A stretch of DNA of 54,499 nt, from positions 1-54,499 of the forward strand of contig JACQXN010000017.1 in the NCBI GenBank assembly GCA_016208745.1, in the 5' to 3' direction. Source of the stretch: Candidatus Portnoybacteria bacterium (GTDB taxonomy: Bacteria > Patescibacteriota > Minisyncoccia > Portnoybacterales > GWB1-42-6). The position numbers and the translations under genes were made by a program. The notes beneath the pieces were generated by a model. It did no database searches. It was not told where the DNA came from and saw only the letters and a program-made list of their open reading frames with translations. Shown here one piece after another: positions 14,657 through 20,620 of the stretch (its first letter is position 1; the number at the start of each line of letters is the position of its first letter).

Positions 14657-16561
14657 TTATTTCTTCAAAATCTCCAGAAAAACATTCTGAGGGATTTTTA
14701 TTTTCCCAATAGATTTCATCTTTTTTTTGCCCCGCTTCTGCTTTTCCAATAGTTTCCTTTTGCGAGAATAATCTCCGCCGTAAAGATAGCCGGTCACATC
14801 TTTCCGCATCGCCGCGATAGTTTCGCGCGCGATGATTTTGCCGCCAAGAGCGGCCTGCAAACTCACAGCAAACATTTGTTTGGGCAAAACTTCCTTTAAC
14901 TTACTAACTAGAGCCCTGCCTTCTTGAAAAACTCTTTCTCTTGGGACAATACGGCTTAAAGAAGACTCCTTATCACCAGCCACTAAAACATCCATCTTAA
15001 CCAAATCGGCGCTGCGCCATTCCAAGATCTCATAGCTCATGGAAGCATAACCGGAACTGACGGATTTTAAACGATCGTAAAAATCAACTATAATCTCGCG
15101 CAAAGGCGCTTCGCAAGAGAAAATGAATCGCTCGCTACCAAGATATTGAGTGTTTTTATAAACCCCGCCAGAAGACTGAACTAGTTTCATTATTGCGCCA
15201 AGATAAACATTGGGACAAATAATTTCCAATTTAATCCACGGCTCTTTAATCTGCTCCAGCCGGCTTGGGTCTGGCATCTCTTCAGCTGAATAAATTGTTT
15301 TTTCTTTATGCCCTGATTTTTCAATAATTTGATAAGCAACGCTTGGCGTTGTGACGATAAGATCAAGACCATATTCCCTTTTTAGTCTTTCACTGATAAT
15401 TTCCAGATGCAGCATTCCCAAAAACCCGCATTTAAATCCGCGGCCTAACGCTTCTGAAGACTCGGGCTCAAAAACAAGCGCGGCATCATTTAGTTTTAAT
15501 TTATTTAACGAGTCTTTTAAGTGGTCGTATTCTGCATCAGCTGAAGGATAAAAGCTGGCAAAAACCATCGGCCTTGGCTCCTTATAACCAGCCAGTGGAT
15601 TTCTGGCTTGATGATGAAAATTAGTTATTGTGTCGCCAACGCGGCATAAACTTACATCTTTAAAACCAGTAGCAATATAGCCAATGTCGCCAGCGCCAAG
15701 CTCGTTTCTTTGCGTTAAAGCCGGCTTAAATATTCCGACTTCCAAAACTTCAGATTGAGCGTGCGAACCTATTAAAAATATTTTTTCACCAGCCTTAATC
15801 TGGCCGTCAACAATTCTGACATAAGCCAAAACGCCTTTATAGGCATCGTAAACTGAATCAAAAATCAAAGCGCGCAATGGCTGGTTTATATTAACTTGGG
15901 GCGCTGGAATTTTTTGAATGACCGCCTGCAATAATTCTTCAACTCCTTTTCCTTCTTTGGCGGAAATTTTATAGATCTCCGCGTTAGAATCTCCTAATAT
16001 CTCTCTTATCTGCTCTTCCGCTTCTTTGACTCTGGCGCCCGGCAAATCAATTTTATTAATCGCTGGGATAATTTTTAAATTTTGCTCTTTGGCTAAATAT
16101 AAATTAGCTAGAGTCTGTGCTTGCACGCCTTTGGTCGCGTCAACCAGTAATATCGCGCCCTCAACCGCAGCCAACGAACGGGAAACCTCGTAAGAAAAAT
16201 CTACATGGCCGGGGGTGTCTATTAAATTTAAAGTGTAAAAATCAAAATTTAAAATTTTGGTATCCCGCTCCGCGGGATTTATTTTTAATTTTTCATTGTC
16301 ATTTTGATTTTTGCCCGCCCCGCTTCGCTTGGCGAGGCCGGGGATATTTACATTTTGCATTTTATACGCCATCCTAACCGGCTGCAATTTTATCGTTATC
16401 CCTTTTTCTCTTTCCAAATCCATCTGATCCAAATACTGCTCTCGCATTTTTCTTTTCTCAACCGCGCCGGTCAATTCCAAAAGCCGGTCCGCTAAAGTGG
16501 ATTTTCCGTGGTCAATATGAGCCAAAATTGCAAAATTCCTAATGTTCTTTAGCTCGGTCAT
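14657..16561 (-). CDS. lepA: Elongation factor 4 (LepA), with a ~33-aa insertion in the G domain
   Basis: NFAILAHIDHGKSTL, DTPGHVDF, NKID, and the C-terminal LepA region (GGDYSRKRKLLEKQKRGKKKMK). Confidence 0.95.
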   Translation of the reverse strand: MTELKNIRNFAILAHIDHGKSTLADRLLELTGAVEKRKMREQYLDQMDLEREKGITIKLQPVRMAYKMQNVNIPGLAKRSGAGKNQNDNEKLKINPAERDTKILNFDFYTLNLIDTPGHVDFSYEVSRSLAAVEGAILLVDATKGVQAQTLANLYLAKEQNLKIIPAINKIDLPGARVKEAEEQIREILGDSNAEIYKISAKEGKGVEELLQAVIQKIPAPQVNINQPLRALIFDSVYDAYKGVLAYVRIVDGQIKAGEKIFLIGSHAQSEVLEVGIFKPALTQRNELGAGDIGYIATGFKDVSLCRVGDTITNFHHQARNPLAGYKEPRPMVFASFYPSADAEYDHLKDSLNKLKLNDAALVFEPESSEALGRGFKCGFLGMLHLEIISERLKREYGLDLIVTTPSVAYQIIEKSGHKEKTIYSAEEMPDPSRLEQIKEPWIKLEIICPNVYLGAIMKLVQSSGGVYKNTQYLGSERFIFSCEAPLREIIVDFYDRLKSVSSGYASMSYEILEWRSADLVKMDVLVAGDKESSLSRIVPRERVFQEGRALVSKLKEVLPKQMFAVSLQAALGGKIIARETIAAMRKDVTGYLYGGDYSRKRKLLEKQKRGKKKMKSIGKIKIPQNVFLEILKK

Positions 16562-17360
16562 ATAAATTTTTTATACATTTATTGAGATGCTCTAATCTTT
16601 TTCTATGTTTTAACAGAGGCCTAATAATACCGAATAATTTAGCAAGAGAGCTTTTATCACTTACCCTTAATCTCCATAAATCACCGTTATACTTATAATG
16701 GTGCTTTTTGTTATAAATCTGCCCCTTGCTACCGATTTTAATAGGAAATGGGCAACTAACATCATTCTTTAACAACCAGTTGTAAATCCAAAATATAATG
16801 TTTCTATCGTAAGAATCGATCTTAAATCTTGCCCTGCCGTCATACACTCCTATATTTCCTTCTGCATCGATATATCCAGCAGCAAAACTATTGGCACATT
16901 CCTTATTTCTAGTGATCCAACCAGCCACAGAGTCTATTTTCGGCAATAAAAATGAAAAGCTTTTATCTAAAAAACAATTTATATGTAGACTCATTTTGCC
17001 TCCGATTGTAACTTGTCCATACTTCACAAACAAATTTTTTATTAAATCTGCCTGCTCCTTTCTGGTTGTGTGACATCTTACAACAATTACATCCGAATGA
17101 CTGACGGTTTGATATACATTCAAATCACCTAATCTAAAACCAATCATATAAGCCTCTTCTTTGCAACTACCAGAAAAACTTTTTTTCTGGTATTTACTCT
17201 GTATTATCGAGCGAGAAAGAGGCTTCATTCCAAATTCTCTCATTCGATTTAAAATCGTCTTGAAGCTACAATCGTAAATTCTACCTATTTCATATTTGGA
17301 TTTATTCTGCTTATAATACAATCTTGATAGATCTTTTTTTGGAATTAATATCTTTGCCAT
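16539..17360 (-). CDS. Free-standing LAGLIDADG-family homing endonuclease with an N-terminal HTH-like region
   Basis: Two LAGLIDADG-type motifs: AYMIGFRLGDLNV and FAAGYIDAEGNIG. Its stop lies 23 nt inside the lepA start region. Confidence 0.7.
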   Translation of the reverse strand: MAKILIPKKDLSRLYYKQNKSKYEIGRIYDCSFKTILNRMREFGMKPLSRSIIQSKYQKKSFSGSCKEEAYMIGFRLGDLNVYQTVSHSDVIVVRCHTTRKEQADLIKNLFVKYGQVTIGGKMSLHINCFLDKSFSFLLPKIDSVAGWITRNKECANSFAAGYIDAEGNIGVYDGRARFKIDSYDRNIIFWIYNWLLKNDVSCPFPIKIGSKGQIYNKKHHYKYNGDLWRLRVSDKSSLAKLFGIIRPLLKHRKRLEHLNKCIKNLYDRAKEH

Positions 17361-17430: not shown

Positions 17431-18252
17431 TTATTCCAGCGGACTCTTAATATTTTTTAAGTTCGGATTGGTGACTTTCGTATAAAGCTGGGTCGTCCTT
17501 ATATTGGCGTGCCCCAAAAGCTCCTGTACATATCGAATATCCACGCCGTTTTCCAAAAGATGGGTGGCAAATGAATGGCGAAGAGAATGAAAAGTAGCGT
17601 CTTTTTGAATTTTAGCATTATTTTTGGCGTTTTCAAAAATTTTCTGAGCGGTTCTTTCTGTTAGTTTCCCGCCTCGTTCACTGGAAAAAACAAAATCATC
17701 TTTATCGCGCAGCGCGGCAATCTCCCGCAAATCATGCTTTAGTTTTTCCGGAAATATTGTAATCCGATCCTTGCTTCCTTTCGCCCTTTTAATATGAATC
17801 GTCAATTCGTCCAAATCAATGTCTTTTATTTTTAAGTTTATTGCTTCGCTTACGCGTAGACCGGCTCCATATGAAAGAGAAATTAGTAATTTGTGTTTAG
17901 GATTTTTTATTGAATCAATTATTCTTTCAAGTTCAATTCTGGAAAGCACCACCGGCAATTTACTCGCGGTCTTAGCAAATTTTATATCAACAGCAATCTG
18001 ACTTTTCATTATTTCGCGATAAAAATATTTTATTGCTTGGAGATGCAGATTGATTGTTTGCGATGATTTTCCCCCGTCCTGCATTCCTAGAAGATAATTT
18101 TTTATTAAACTGGCATCCGGCTCTTTTTTGATGTTTTTAATGTGGTGAAAATAATTTTTCAGGCAAAACAAATAACTTTCAACGGTCCTAGGACTGAAAT
18201 TGCGCAATTTTAGCTCATTCTCAATTTTTTTAATCAGTTCTTCCAAGCGCAT
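17431..18252 (-). CDS. Tyrosine site-specific recombinase (XerC/XerD/integrase family)
   Basis: N-terminal SAM-like domain. Catalytic residues lie in GLRVSE (R), KGSKDR (K), HSLRHSFATHL (H-x-x-R), LGHANIRTTQLYTKV (H, Y). Confidence 0.85.
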   Translation of the reverse strand: MRLEELIKKIENELKLRNFSPRTVESYLFCLKNYFHHIKNIKKEPDASLIKNYLLGMQDGGKSSQTINLHLQAIKYFYREIMKSQIAVDIKFAKTASKLPVVLSRIELERIIDSIKNPKHKLLISLSYGAGLRVSEAINLKIKDIDLDELTIHIKRAKGSKDRITIFPEKLKHDLREIAALRDKDDFVFSSERGGKLTERTAQKIFENAKNNAKIQKDATFHSLRHSFATHLLENGVDIRYVQELLGHANIRTTQLYTKVTNPNLKNIKSPLE

Positions 18253-18360
18253 ACAAAAGATGCTATTATAAAAATATAAATGGATTTTTTTAATAATACC
18301 ACACTTCGCATAATATACAAATTTTAAAAACTATCAATCTTTTTATTCGCATAAAAACGA

Positions 18361-18407
18361 GTTATCGGAAATATTGCTCTTTAAAAACAAATACTTTTAG
18401 AGAATTG
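18361..18407. repeat. Left inverted repeat bracketing the zinc-ribbon gene
   Basis: The reverse complement of gttatcggaaatattgctctttaaaaacaaatacttttagagaattg matches 18670-18745 at about 45 of 47 positions, once a 29-nt hairpin insertion in the right copy is allowed for. Confidence 0.8.
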
Positions 18408-18433
18408 AAACTATCAACAAAAGGAGGTTCCCT

Positions 18434-18625
18434 ATGCATAGCATTAAACAATTATTGGACATGATAGCAACTGAAGCTCTTTCGTCGGACACTCATCAAT
18501 GCCATAGTTGCGGGCGCACTTTTTCACCCAATGAAGACGGCTGTCCATTCTGCGGTACAAACGCGCCCGTTTCACTAATTCCCGAACTGCAGAAAAAAAA
18601 CGAGCATGAAGTGGAAAACGATTGA
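18434..18625 (+). CDS. Small zinc-ribbon protein (63 aa), paralogue of 34145-34417
   Basis: Strong SD (aaaaggagg-N6-ATG). The CxxC...CxxC motif CHSCGRTFSPNEDGCPFCGTNAPV is shared with the paralogue. Confidence 0.6.
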   Translation: MHSIKQLLDMIATEALSSDTHQCHSCGRTFSPNEDGCPFCGTNAPVSLIPELQKKNEHEVEND

Positions 18626-18669
18626 TTCAATTCATTTTCTCTCATGGGGAAGTCAAAAAATGATTTCCC

Positions 18670-18745
18670 CAATTCTCTAAAAGTATTTGTTTTGCTGGTT
18701 TATCAGCCAGCAGGCTATCGCCTAAAGAGCAATACATCCGATAAC
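18670..18745. repeat. Right inverted repeat bracketing the zinc-ribbon gene (interrupted by the gctgg...ccagc hairpin at 18694-18722)
   Basis: caattctctaaaagtatttgtttt[29 nt]taaagagcaatacatccgataac. Confidence 0.8.
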
Positions 18746-18880
18746 ACGGCATATCCGGCTCGGACTTTTACGAAAGTCCCCGCGCAAATTGCCTTTTCGC
18801 TCCAGTGGTCGGTTAACGCCATATTATACCACTTACGCTTCAAGGCAACTTCGTATATTCGGATACGTTATACGCATAAT

Positions 18881-18911
18881 AAAAAACGGCTAGAAACTAT
18901 AGCCGTTTTTA
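18881..18911. terminator. Bidirectional rho-independent terminator (murJ on minus; zinc-ribbon gene region on plus)
   Basis: aaaaaa-cggcta-gaaacta-tagccg-ttttt. Confidence 0.7.
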
Positions 18912-18934
18912 TTTTCCAGTTTTTTTCCAAAAAT

Positions 18935-20620
18935 CTACATCTCCTCTGTCTCGCTAATTCCCAAAAACTTCACTGATTGCCACATTTTTCTTTTGACCGC
19001 AGCAACCAGACTAATCATTTCTTCAGATTTTAGAAGCAGCGAGATTGAAACAAAAATAACGCCGGCAAAAAATGTGGCAAAAATAAGTTGCAGTAAGATT
19101 CCCAAAAAAGTGAGGGTATTTAAAAACGGCTCAATAAAATAAAGACAGGCATAGCCGACAACGCCGGCGGCCAGACCAGCTAAAAGATATTTTAAAAAAG
19201 CGACAAAAATTTTTCCAAAATCAAGCGAGCCATAATATTTTCTTAAAATTATAAAAAGAGTTGCCGCGTAGAAAAAAGAGGCCAAGGAAAAACCAAATGG
19301 CAAAGCTAAAATTCTAACATCGGATAGCCCATCCAGTTTCAGAAAAGAAATCAGGCTTTGCGTGAAAACTTCATCGCGGCTTAATAAGTTTAAAAAAAGA
19401 TATGTCGACCCGATATTAACCACGATTGAAACTAGACTTATTATCAAAGGAATAACTGTGTTTTTTAAAGCAAAAAATGCCCGCGAAAGCAAGGGGGCGA
19501 TTCCTTGAAAAATAAAACTTGAAGCAAAAACTGCTAAAGTGGCAGCCGCCAGCCGCGTTTCATCCCAACTTAGGTTTCTGGCTCCGATAATCAAACGCAC
19601 AATCTGCGCTCTAAAAACAAAAGTTAAGATTGCCAGGGGCACAAGGAAAAACAGAATTTGGCGCGCGGTATAGGAAAAATCTTTTTTAAATTCTTCTTTA
19701 TCGTCTCTGGCCGCCGAATGGCTAAGGCTGGGAAAAACAGAGACCACAAAAGAAACCGCAAAAACTCCGATTGGCACATATTCAATATTTAAAACCAGAT
19801 TAAAAAGCGCCACACTTCCAATCATTAGCGTTGAACCAATGATTGTGCCGACCAGCTGACTAATTTGCGCTGTGTCAATCCCGATAATTCTTGGCAAAAT
19901 TAATTTAAAAATATTTCTTACACCCTGATTTTTTAAATCAATAGCTTTCTGCCAGACAAATCCAAATTTTTTGGCGCCCGGAATTTGAACCAAAAGGTGA
20001 AGCAACGCGCCAAAAACGACTCCGGCCGCCACGCCAAAAATTCCAAAAAATGGCGCCAGAAACAAAATGCCAAAAATAATCGCCAAATTATAGATTAAGG
20101 GCGCCAAGGCAACTAAAAAAAAGCTTCTAAAAGAGTTTAAAATTCCTGAGAAAACAGCGCTAATGGCAAAAAGCCACGGAGAAAGGAGTAAAATTCTTGT
20201 TAGATTCACAGTTAAAGAAAGTTTTTCGCCTGCAAATCCCGGGCTTATCAAATGCATAAGAAGCGGAGAAAAAACAAAAAAGACAGAAACCAAAACGCCC
20301 ATAACGACTATAGTTAAATTCAAAACAGAATTAGCAATCCGCCAGGCTTGAACTTTATCTTTATCTAAAAATTCACAGAAAACCGGAATAAAAGCCACCG
20401 ATAAGGTGGCTGAAATTAAAAGATTAAAAGCAAAATTGGGAATCTGAAAAGCGGCAAAATAAGCGTCCAGATTATTACCAACGCCAAATGTCCCAACGAG
20501 CAACCTTTCGCGAATCATTCCCAAAAAACGGCTAGCCAAAGAAGCCGCCGCCAGAAGCATGGCGGCCGAAGCGATATTTTGAGTATTGTTGTTAAAAATT
20601 CGGGAAAAAATTTTATTCAT
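18935..20620 (-). CDS. murJ: Lipid II flippase MurJ (MviN family)
   Basis: About 14 TM helices, with the N-terminal pattern ASRFLGMIRERLLVGTFG...LDAYFAAFQIPNFAFNLL typical of MurJ. Confidence 0.85.
   Translation of the reverse strand: MNKIFSRIFNNNTQNIASAAMLLAAASLASRFLGMIRERLLVGTFGVGNNLDAYFAAFQIPNFAFNLLISATLSVAFIPVFCEFLDKDKVQAWRIANSVLNLTIVVMGVLVSVFFVFSPLLMHLISPGFAGEKLSLTVNLTRILLLSPWLFAISAVFSGILNSFRSFFLVALAPLIYNLAIIFGILFLAPFFGIFGVAAGVVFGALLHLLVQIPGAKKFGFVWQKAIDLKNQGVRNIFKLILPRIIGIDTAQISQLVGTIIGSTLMIGSVALFNLVLNIEYVPIGVFAVSFVVSVFPSLSHSAARDDKEEFKKDFSYTARQILFFLVPLAILTFVFRAQIVRLIIGARNLSWDETRLAAATLAVFASSFIFQGIAPLLSRAFFALKNTVIPLIISLVSIVVNIGSTYLFLNLLSRDEVFTQSLISFLKLDGLSDVRILALPFGFSLASFFYAATLFIILRKYYGSLDFGKIFVAFLKYLLAGLAAGVVGYACLYFIEPFLNTLTFLGILLQLIFATFFAGVIFVSISLLLKSEEMISLVAAVKRKMWQSVKFLGISETEEM

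Follow-up and report, generated by a model that had tools for sequence, protein, structure and literature searches.

In integrons, a tyrosine recombinase gene is transcribed divergently from an adjoining attI site, beyond which accessory gene cassettes form a co-oriented array, and in the canonical systems only a 6-7-bp inverted repeat is left around each gene. The integrase IntI carries an additional domain, the insertion of which is believed to have enabled the recombination of folded single-stranded sites (PMC4792948, PMC7790495) and which is held to be necessary for attC recombination (PMC9668308, PMC7790495); the IntI of archaeal integrons has this domain as well (PMC9668308). In the present study, we analyzed a contig of 54,499 nucleotides (nt) from a Candidatus Portnoybacteria bacterium (JACQXN010000017.1; hereafter, the window), belonging to the candidate phyla radiation (CPR), in which a gene for a 63-aa zinc-ribbon protein lies between long inverted repeats (18361-18745) next to a divergent tyrosine recombinase gene (17431-18252). 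We consider, at a probability of nearly four in five, that this segment represents one mobile cassette belonging to an integron-like platform with an Xer/IntI-family recombinase and a dif-like attI. The system would work like an integron yet fails the defining protein feature of that family, and it is probably undescribed: no integron-like platforms in CPR, Patescibacteria, Saccharibacteria, or Parcubacteria were found in the literature searched, the coverage of which was incomplete, such that a description may exist elsewhere.

The locus and its relatives share with integrons the divergent arrangement of the recombinase gene and attI, arrays of co-oriented accessory cassettes that include SMR transporter and restriction-modification (R-M) genes, a putative crossover at G|TT, cassettes without an open reading frame (ORF), and exchange between genomes. 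As in integrons, the cassettes end in an imperfect palindrome (R''-L''...L'-R') with invariant AAC/GTT, the conservation of which is structure-based, with covarying positions. They differ from integrons in the absence of the additional domain (I2 helix) from the recombinase, in longer sites (about 90-210 nt versus 57-141 nt) with two internal hairpins and conserved CCCAAAT and AACTTC motifs, in an R arm of 11 nt (TTRnnnGAAAT) rather than 6 nt (TTRRRY), in a dif-like attI, and in their CPR hosts. The stem of the site, moreover, runs 14-52 bp past the R box, such that integrated cassettes are bracketed by long inverted repeats. The elements concerned are arranged in the window as follows.

17431-18252, minus strand: 273-aa tyrosine recombinase, Xer/IntI-like and of the 'Cand' type (Pfam Phage_integrase, 5.8e-44)
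18305-18326, plus strand: box 1, an accessory site (TTCGCATAATATACAAATTTTA; family consensus TTCGYATAAYAYRCAARTTTTAG) at a constant distance from attI in related loci
18346-18372, plus strand: attI-like, dif-like core with left arm TTCGCATAA (18346-54), spacer AAACGAG (18355-61), and right arm TTATCGGAAAT (18362-72)
18361-18407, plus strand: left inverted-repeat arm, comprising the R' box (GTTATCG), GAAAT, and a 35-nt outer-stem extension
18362-18867, plus strand: gene cassette of 506 nt, beginning at the TT that follows the attI G and ending with the G of the subsequent G|TT
18420-18427, plus strand: Shine-Dalgarno (SD) sequence (AAAGGAGG) upstream of the cargo ORF
18434-18625, plus strand: cargo ORF for a 63-aa zinc-ribbon protein (CxxC..CxxC), with sub-threshold zinc-ribbon Pfam matches only
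18670-18693 and 18723-18745, plus strand: right inverted-repeat arm, comprising an extension (18670-93), the insert, an extension (18723-33), ACATC (18734-38), and the R'' box CGATAAC (18739-45)
18694-18722, plus strand: 29-nt insert of the right arm only, including a small hairpin (GCTGG..CCAGC)

A preliminary description of this DNA had noted 47-nt arms matching at 45 positions, the 29-nt insert, and a 262-nt interior holding the SD sequence and the CxxC..CxxC gene, with the divergent recombinase ORF starting 108 nt to the left of the repeat. All of these were reproduced, the divergent layout recurs in related loci, and its grouping of the repeats and the small gene with the recombinase into a single functional unit was supported. 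Complementarity is perfect over the inner 24 nt of the repeat, while the outer 23 nt contain two adjacent mismatches, AA at 18371-72 facing CA of ACATC. The 24-mer occurs at two places only within the window when up to 3 mismatches are allowed (0.00 expected by chance); the arm sequence is thus confined to this locus within the window, which argues against the dispersed palindromic family that had been named as a competing possibility. The repeat dominates the predicted fold of either strand (z = -8.7 for single-stranded DNA and -8.5 for RNA). It is not a known RNA family: a Rfam search of the whole window at gathering thresholds returned three tRNAs only and nothing for the repeat region, and a permissive search of 18200-19000 gave only sub-threshold alignments of a chance or terminator type.

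Recombinase-flanking DNA was compared among related loci collected by scans (34 genome and 80 metagenome loci). As judged from its relatives, the genome of the window is Moranbacteria-like. Upstream of the recombinase, a conserved layout was found in which ~20 nt separate box 1 from TTCGYATAWAAACGA|GTT. Across 38 distinct loci, conservation was 0.85 at positions -16 to -1 relative to GTT, 1.0 at GTT itself, 0.6 over the next 4-5 nt (+4..+8), and 0.9 at GAAAT, and fell beyond it to 0.42, which is the background. The two TTCGCATAA words at 18305 and 18346, previously pointed out as possible binding sites, are both present and belong to box 1 and the left arm of attI, respectively; they are conserved across related loci. 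By inspection, the site reads ATTCGCATAA-AAACGAG-TTATCGGAAAT, with two inverted arms of ~10-11 nt that match each other partly around a 7-nt spacer, and its core resembles the dif site of Escherichia coli (GGTGCGCATAA-TGTATA-TTATGTTAAAT). Among about 100 related CPR loci, the conservation of the recombinase and attI persists as far as G|TT and is lost afterwards, and cassette replacement begins exactly there; we infer strand cleavage and crossover at G18361|T18362.

Past attI, each locus holds a different gene bracketed by inverted repeats starting at GTT, and internal boundaries of the form AACTTCnnATAnnnnnNAC|GTTRnnnRAAAT recur in direct order. The cassettes are 164-1760 nt long, arrays contain from one to at least four of them, and the cargo types include SMR/EamA transporters, NUDIX, RibD_C, isochorismatase, radical SAM, and HD proteins, and a pair consisting of a methylase and a MutH-like nuclease. 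Of the inter-site intervals containing an ORF of 90 aa or longer, all 38 have it pointing away from the recombinase; the count without this size limit is 43 out of 47.

Close relatives differ by precise exchanges at these boundaries. The recombinase and attI are 98-99.9% identical among five loci (L014, L069, L070, L071, and L072), two of which, L072 and L014, remain 98% identical through the recombinase and attI, diverge exactly after the attI GTT(A), carry different first cassettes (451 and 592 nt), and regain 98% identity at the next junction. Cassette 1 is shared between L071 and L072, which then differ, and L001 and L041 are 100% identical through cassette 1 and different thereafter. Cassette 1 of L001 is also 88% identical to that of L102, while the recombinase genes of these two loci barely align. 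In L081, murJ and a gene for an 883-aa protein are present as in the window, but with 3 kb of array between them. Cassettes homologous to that of the window occur at other array positions and in other genomes, for example, as the second cassette of an array in a Moranbacteria metagenome-assembled genome (MAG; L127), and the boundary motifs of the window cassette are the same as those in 20+ cassettes of related loci. In 26 out of 83 loci, the contig terminates 60-250 nt upstream of the recombinase, compared with 7 out of 83 with an end at the same distance downstream, and at least 4 kb is available upstream in 16 loci only, versus 46 downstream. Contig breaks at attI would be expected if cassette content varied between populations.

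Several further observations were made on the arrays. Two-gene cassettes exist, such as the R-M pair of an N6_N4 methylase and a MutH-like nuclease in L013/L064 (212-1656 in array coordinates), another cassette holds an 878-aa ATPase, and defence-type cargo is present in L013/L064, L094, and L100. At the contig end of L041, two copies of one attC-like site face each other (16-125 on the plus strand and 172-281 on the minus strand), a fold-back that may have arisen in assembly or may reflect a genuine inversion. In L001, the start of the third cassette is like that of the first, pointing to a cyclic assembly graph at the end of that contig. In the Moranbacteria MAG (PEVT01000005.1; L127 4440-5617), a complete attI-like region with box 1 and TTCGCATAAAAACGA|GTT is followed by at least two cassettes, the second of which has window-type arms; it adjoins a kinase-like gene, with no recombinase gene beside it.

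Regarding the right end of the cassette, a second boundary in the window, AACTTCGTATATTCGGATAC|GTTATACGCATAAT, lies at 18848-18880, and the unit is, therefore, 18362-18867 rather than 18361-18745. As judged from these motifs, the mobile unit is larger than the repeat-bounded segment and extends 122 nt further right, to 18867. The suggestion of a tiny transposable cassette in the preliminary description consequently stands in as far as the cassette is mobile, but not as a transposon with terminal repeats, because the right boundary is a second G|TT located 122 nt beyond the repeat. The end of the cassette is formed by the following elements.

18734-18878, plus strand: attC-like site, the sole match in the window of covariance model R1 (39.9 bits, E=1.4e-6)
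18747-18757, plus strand: L'' CGGCATATCCG, after R'' and the spacer A
18762-18779, plus strand: hairpin 1 of the attC-like site
18782-18789, plus strand: GCGCAAAT motif between hairpins 1 and 2
18790-18847, plus strand: hairpin 2, unusually long and followed by ACTT
18852-18862, plus strand: L' CGTATATTCGG, followed by ATAC and G18867|TT

The architecture of the family is outer arm'-ACATC-R''(nnnTAAC)-A-L''(11 nt)-GTTC-hairpin 1-CCCAAAT-hairpin 2-AACTT-L'(11 nt)-NAAC-G|TT, followed by R', with a total length of 88-209 nt. R'' is complementary to the R' at the left end of the same cassette at 9-10 out of 12 positions in the window and 16 other cassettes, and L'' is complementary to L' across the family. 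Pairing at the variable R-box positions of these 17 distinct cassettes amounts to 97% (61% in shuffles), and in the L box to 98% (70% in shuffles), with three or four pair types at each position. Two positions of GAAAT/ACATC are never paired (0/17), and the two mismatches of the window repeat are this conserved 2x2 mismatch. In a MAFFT alignment of 13 compact sites, 92.6% of positions were paired versus 74.3% in shuffles, none of 500 of which reached this value, and 37-45% in slid registers; 12 pairs had changed on both sides, including all four pairs of hairpin 1. The purine-pyrimidine pattern RYYYAAC/GTTRRRY is only partly kept (e.g., GTTATCG). The asymmetric spacer (A opposite NAAC), a TT bulge, and the 2x2 mismatch may be analogous to details of integron sites.

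Model R1 was built from 13 sites with that of the window left out. When applied to related loci totalling 716 kb, it gave 63 matches, 62 of them on the array strand, which is opposite to the recombinase, and every one upstream of the recombinase gene. It replaced a strict pattern scan (AAC-N-X11...CTT-rcX11-N3-4-GTT), which yielded 28 matches versus 0 in shuffles but missed bulged sites and the site of the window. No R1 matches were obtained in 13 loci with distant recombinases (27-43% identity) including DPANN and non-CPR genomes, and an extension of the system to archaea received no support. Among distant relatives, two contigs labelled Woesearchaeota (L027 and L107) carry recombinases of 40% identity together with an attI-like TTCGCAAAAAGTTTGTTAGGTGAAAT and an ORF enclosed by inverted repeats; they did not match the CPR site model and may represent a related DPANN version of the system. 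On the cassette strand, SD-like words (TAAGGAG and AAGGAA) are often present in the loops of both hairpins, well away from start codons (e.g., L024 296-429, L052 117-253, and L060 121-260).

The position of the putative crossover accounts for the 47-bp repeat. With G|TT placed between L' and R', a cassette, once integrated, starts with its own R' and ends with R''...L', and the repeat is the outer stem of the attC-like site, parted into two by integration. Beyond the R box, the stem is prolonged by 14-52 further matching positions in 15 out of 17 cassettes. Inserts of 29-59 nt confined to the right arm are common (40-59 nt in 7 out of 17 cassettes), and this asymmetry may mark a strand or direction. 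The arms of the window and the 29-nt insert are found at 90-97% identity around unrelated ORFs (L071/72 and cassette 2 of L013), and the arms recur with compensatory changes around zinc-ribbon homologues in other arrays (L119 and L121, both with model matches). The insert, which forms two mini-hairpins, is conserved in L071, cassette 2 of L013, L119, and L121 despite differing cargo. ORF-less cassettes consist of the arms and the site alone (L016, L010, and L088). We infer that the arms aid the folding of the site or the pairing of the cassette ends, be it in single-stranded DNA, a cruciform, or an excised circle. An interpretation of the repeat as two adjacent canonical attC halves, with L'/R' of one site pairing with R''/L'' of the next, was ruled out: the pairing extends inward from GTT/AAC, and the repeat is the outer stem of one site.

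The recombinase contains Phage_integrase and SAM-like domains, with candidate catalytic residues, assigned by motif, at R133, K158/161, H222, R225, H248, and Y257. It scores 230 bits with the NCBIfam model XerA_Arch (NF040815), above the cutoff of 220, and 219.6 bits with the integron integrase model (TIGR02249), below the cutoff of 265 and in two aligned stretches. The best match of a solved structure is the Vibrio integron integrase VchIntIA (IntI4; 2a3v) with 160.7 bits over two aligned stretches, followed by Pyrococcus XerA with 147.9 bits. At least 7777 clusters, uniformly of 272-273 aa, make up this very large family, which is mostly named XerD and is otherwise labelled 'site-specific tyrosine recombinase/integron integrase'. 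CPR recombinases were previously grouped as Xer-related 'Cand', and class-specific enzymes were suggested to replace Xer (PMC8138268); the enzyme of the window corresponds to this subgroup. The possibility raised earlier that it is a conserved Xer orthologue is partly correct, with regard to its membership in a conserved Xer-like CPR family, but its association with cassette arrays is equally conserved. The best promoter-like site for its gene lies at 18337..18310 on the minus strand (TTGATA-16-TATTAT). Box 1 overlaps the -10 element of this candidate (18305-18337), which suggests possible self-regulation by the recombinase.

By analogy with integrons and CTX-phi (PMC4792948, PMC7790495), the recombinase would bind attI as double-stranded DNA (dif-like; TTCGCATAA-AAACGAG-TTATCGGAAAT) and, on the folded cassette site, the R box plus the L box. 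One strand would be exchanged at G|TT, where cassettes would enter and leave, and the product would be resolved by replication. Integration would leave R' at the left end of the cassette and R''...L' at the right end, and the 11-nt R arm (TTRnnnGAAAT) of each cassette would rebuild a full-length right arm of attI. On excision, or in single-stranded DNA, the arms may pair again, such that the R box is rebuilt, the long stem is closed, and both boxes are presented to the recombinase; the extra stem may thus have a role in folding or synapsis. The minus strand is the G-rich and gene-rich strand of the window; if it is the leading strand, the bottom strand of the cassette would be on the lagging-strand template, which would make folding easier.

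Several points weigh against the proposed integron-like platform. Residues 186-240 of VchIntIA face only 12 residues of the recombinase (184-195), and because the alignment skips this stretch, the enzyme is without the IntI-specific additional domain (I2 helix around patch III). In the window site, the L box pairs at 8 out of 11 positions only, and with 39.9 bits the site falls far short of good ones, which score 70-100 bits. Neither circular cassettes (...TATTCGGATACG|TTATCGGAAATATTGC...; GGATACG|TTATCGG) nor, in the genome contigs searched, an empty attI joined to the post-cassette sequence (AAAAACGAG|TTATACGCATAAT) were found, and promoter scans gave no convincing promoter for the cassette; the sole promoter-like site on the plus strand (18128-18155, inside the recombinase gene) is weak and not above chance. 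The arms are also conserved in a copy without an attC-like site, which could point to a role at the RNA level. This copy, in L124 (5930-6270), consists of a zinc-ribbon homologue with decayed arms amid housekeeping genes (RtcB, archease, and PRPP synthase) and looks like a fossil cassette. In addition, the sets of L and R boxes were partly selected by pairing and the left ends by best match, which introduces an ascertainment bias; hairpin 1 and the model matches are free of this bias, and the left ends coincide with independently defined boundaries. The L' half of the window site is identical to that of L060, the own L'' of which matches it perfectly, and the L box is perfect in the homologous cassette of L071. 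Because of the mispaired L box, the L' half shared with L060, and the unusually long hairpin 2, the window site may be chimeric or decayed, and its cassette may be fixed in place and no longer mobile.

Among other explanations, the one with the most in its favor, which we still regard as doubtful, is that the recombinase is the housekeeping Xer of CPR ('Cand'), the adjoining site is the chromosomal dif, and the cassettes are integrative mobile elements exploiting Xer (IMEX) stacked there; no dedicated integron integrase would then exist, and the anatomy of the locus and the role of the repeat would be unchanged, with only the primary task of the enzyme differing. XerCD need no I2 domain for CTX-phi, and an Xer-type enzyme without I2 would, similarly to that case, act on a single-stranded hairpin in folded form and a dif-like site in double-stranded form, with integration regenerating a functional-looking site and allowing tandem stacking. 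The passing of the XerA equivalog cutoff, the size and uniformity of a family mostly named XerD, the 'Cand' grouping with its suggested replacement of Xer, the absence of I2, synteny of the recombinase gene with lepA in 7 loci, the presumed resemblance of the attI core to dif in its inverted arms and 7-nt spacer, and the restoration of its 11-nt right arm by every cassette all agree with this explanation. A single Xer-like recombinase is also a feature of XerS/difSL and archaeal XerA/dif, and the target site of XerS lies immediately upstream of its recombinase gene; to our knowledge, these systems, the sites of which are in the termination region, have no arrays of hairpin-site cassettes. Unlike in CTX-phi-type elements, the present units are bare gene cassettes without phage or replication genes, and each keeps a complete reusable site, such that excision and reshuffling seem possible. 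The site stands beside the recombinase gene rather than at a skew switch: GC skew has the same sign on both sides (-0.12 left and -0.14 right of the site), its cumulative curve is monotonic across 54 kb, and there is no switch in gene orientation, with nearly all genes of the window on the minus strand and GC skew uniformly negative. This examination concerns the genome of the window only, the other loci, with their oppositely oriented arrays, being uninformative. The match to IntI4 furthermore exceeds that to XerA, and at least one attI with an array (L127) has no recombinase gene beside it.

A role of the repeat in RNA is unlikely, either besides or instead of DNA folding. The arms would form a duplex of the 5' and 3' untranslated regions that stabilizes or insulates the cassette mRNA, or an RNase III site at which the array transcript is cut. 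The long terminal stem persists in the predicted fold of plus-strand RNA, SD-like words are present in the hairpin loops, and the arms are kept across cassettes with unrelated ORFs and, with compensatory changes, beside the zinc-ribbon gene where attC has decayed or been lost (L119 and L124); however, the stem starts precisely at the R box and crossover point, covariation links the R box to the stem, ORF-less cassettes retain the arms, no plus-strand promoter was found upstream of the left arm, and cassette swaps would be left unexplained. Inversion by the recombinase of the repeat-bounded gene, which would connect it to an external promoter or disconnect it, had been the leading model of the preliminary description and is now very improbable. 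The layout of a recombinase gene beside inverted repeats around a short segment does fit invertons (fimS/FimBE and the Bacteroides promoter switches), one archaeal locus (L027) has an ORF on the other strand, and an inverted attC copy is present at one contig end (L041). However, the cargo varies between loci and its orientation is uniform, GAAAT is always in the left arm and ACATC always in the right without ever being swapped, and no two-orientation evidence was found among the cassettes and contigs compared, with all five contigs carrying the exact window cassette sharing one orientation. The recombinase is not of the invertase type (73 and 68 bits with NF007371 and NF007370, versus cutoffs of 222 and 221), and the repeats are much longer than those of invertons and part of a larger site, with the cassette boundaries outside the repeat. 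We give even less credence to a miniature transposon with terminal inverted repeats or a prophage or island integrase with attachment sites. Terminal inverted repeats around a short segment and a third CGCATAA word at 18873, in a weak direct repeat with 18307 (71% identity), are set against a repeat that is unique in the window, a right boundary not at its end, the lack of target-site duplications, flanking housekeeping genes (lepA and murJ), and near absence of the recombinase family from 2.9 million viral contigs, which gave only 2 matches (31-33% identity). The integron-like platform, thus, remains the preferred explanation.

The window contains a single cassette only, beyond which the array ends in a remnant R' and a terminator-like hairpin.

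18867-18880, plus strand: R'-like terminal remnant GTTATACGCATAAT, which marks the array end (cf. GTTATACGCAAT at cassette starts in L001 and L020)
18882-18910, no strand assigned: hairpin between an A run and a T run (AAAAACGGCTAGAAACTATAGCCGTTTTT), noted from the sequence, with weak terminator-type Rfam alignments
18935-20620, minus strand: murJ, the flanking gene beyond the array end

Lying between the array end and murJ, the hairpin at 18882-18910 is probably a bidirectional terminator; it was not flagged by a simple terminator scan. Eight homologues of the cargo protein were found at 72-81% identity, several of them within other cassette arrays. On the other side, a 273-aa ORF with a weak LAGLIDADG-like match (16539-17360, minus strand) is located between the recombinase gene and lepA, the start of which it overlaps by 23 nt. 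It is present in the window and L046 only (75% identity), lepA directly following the recombinase in seven other loci, and may be a free-standing homing-endonuclease-like insertion.

On balance, we lean towards the view that CPR (Patescibacteria) widely carry an unrecognized integron-type system of gene capture with an Xer-family enzyme lacking I2, a dif-like attI, and long multi-hairpin attC-like sites. Standard integron detection depends on the additional domain and the canonical attC model, and such a system would be invisible to it. The present covariance model may be used for cassette finding, and the recurrent assembly breaks at the locus would be explained. If the integron-like platform is confirmed, the recombination of hairpin-bearing cassettes would not require the IntI-specific domain, and the system would represent either a 'proto-integron' that has survived as an intermediate of Xer/dif and integrons or the same idea invented independently. 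The combination of cassette arrays and precise swaps with a plain Xer-like enzyme makes the transition from Xer to integrons directly testable at this locus, and suggests that CPR 'Xer' has a gene-capture role or an additional one. Most known mobile-element machinery is absent from CPR organisms, and cassette exchange would then be a major route by which their reduced genomes acquire R-M systems, transporters, and small enzymes.

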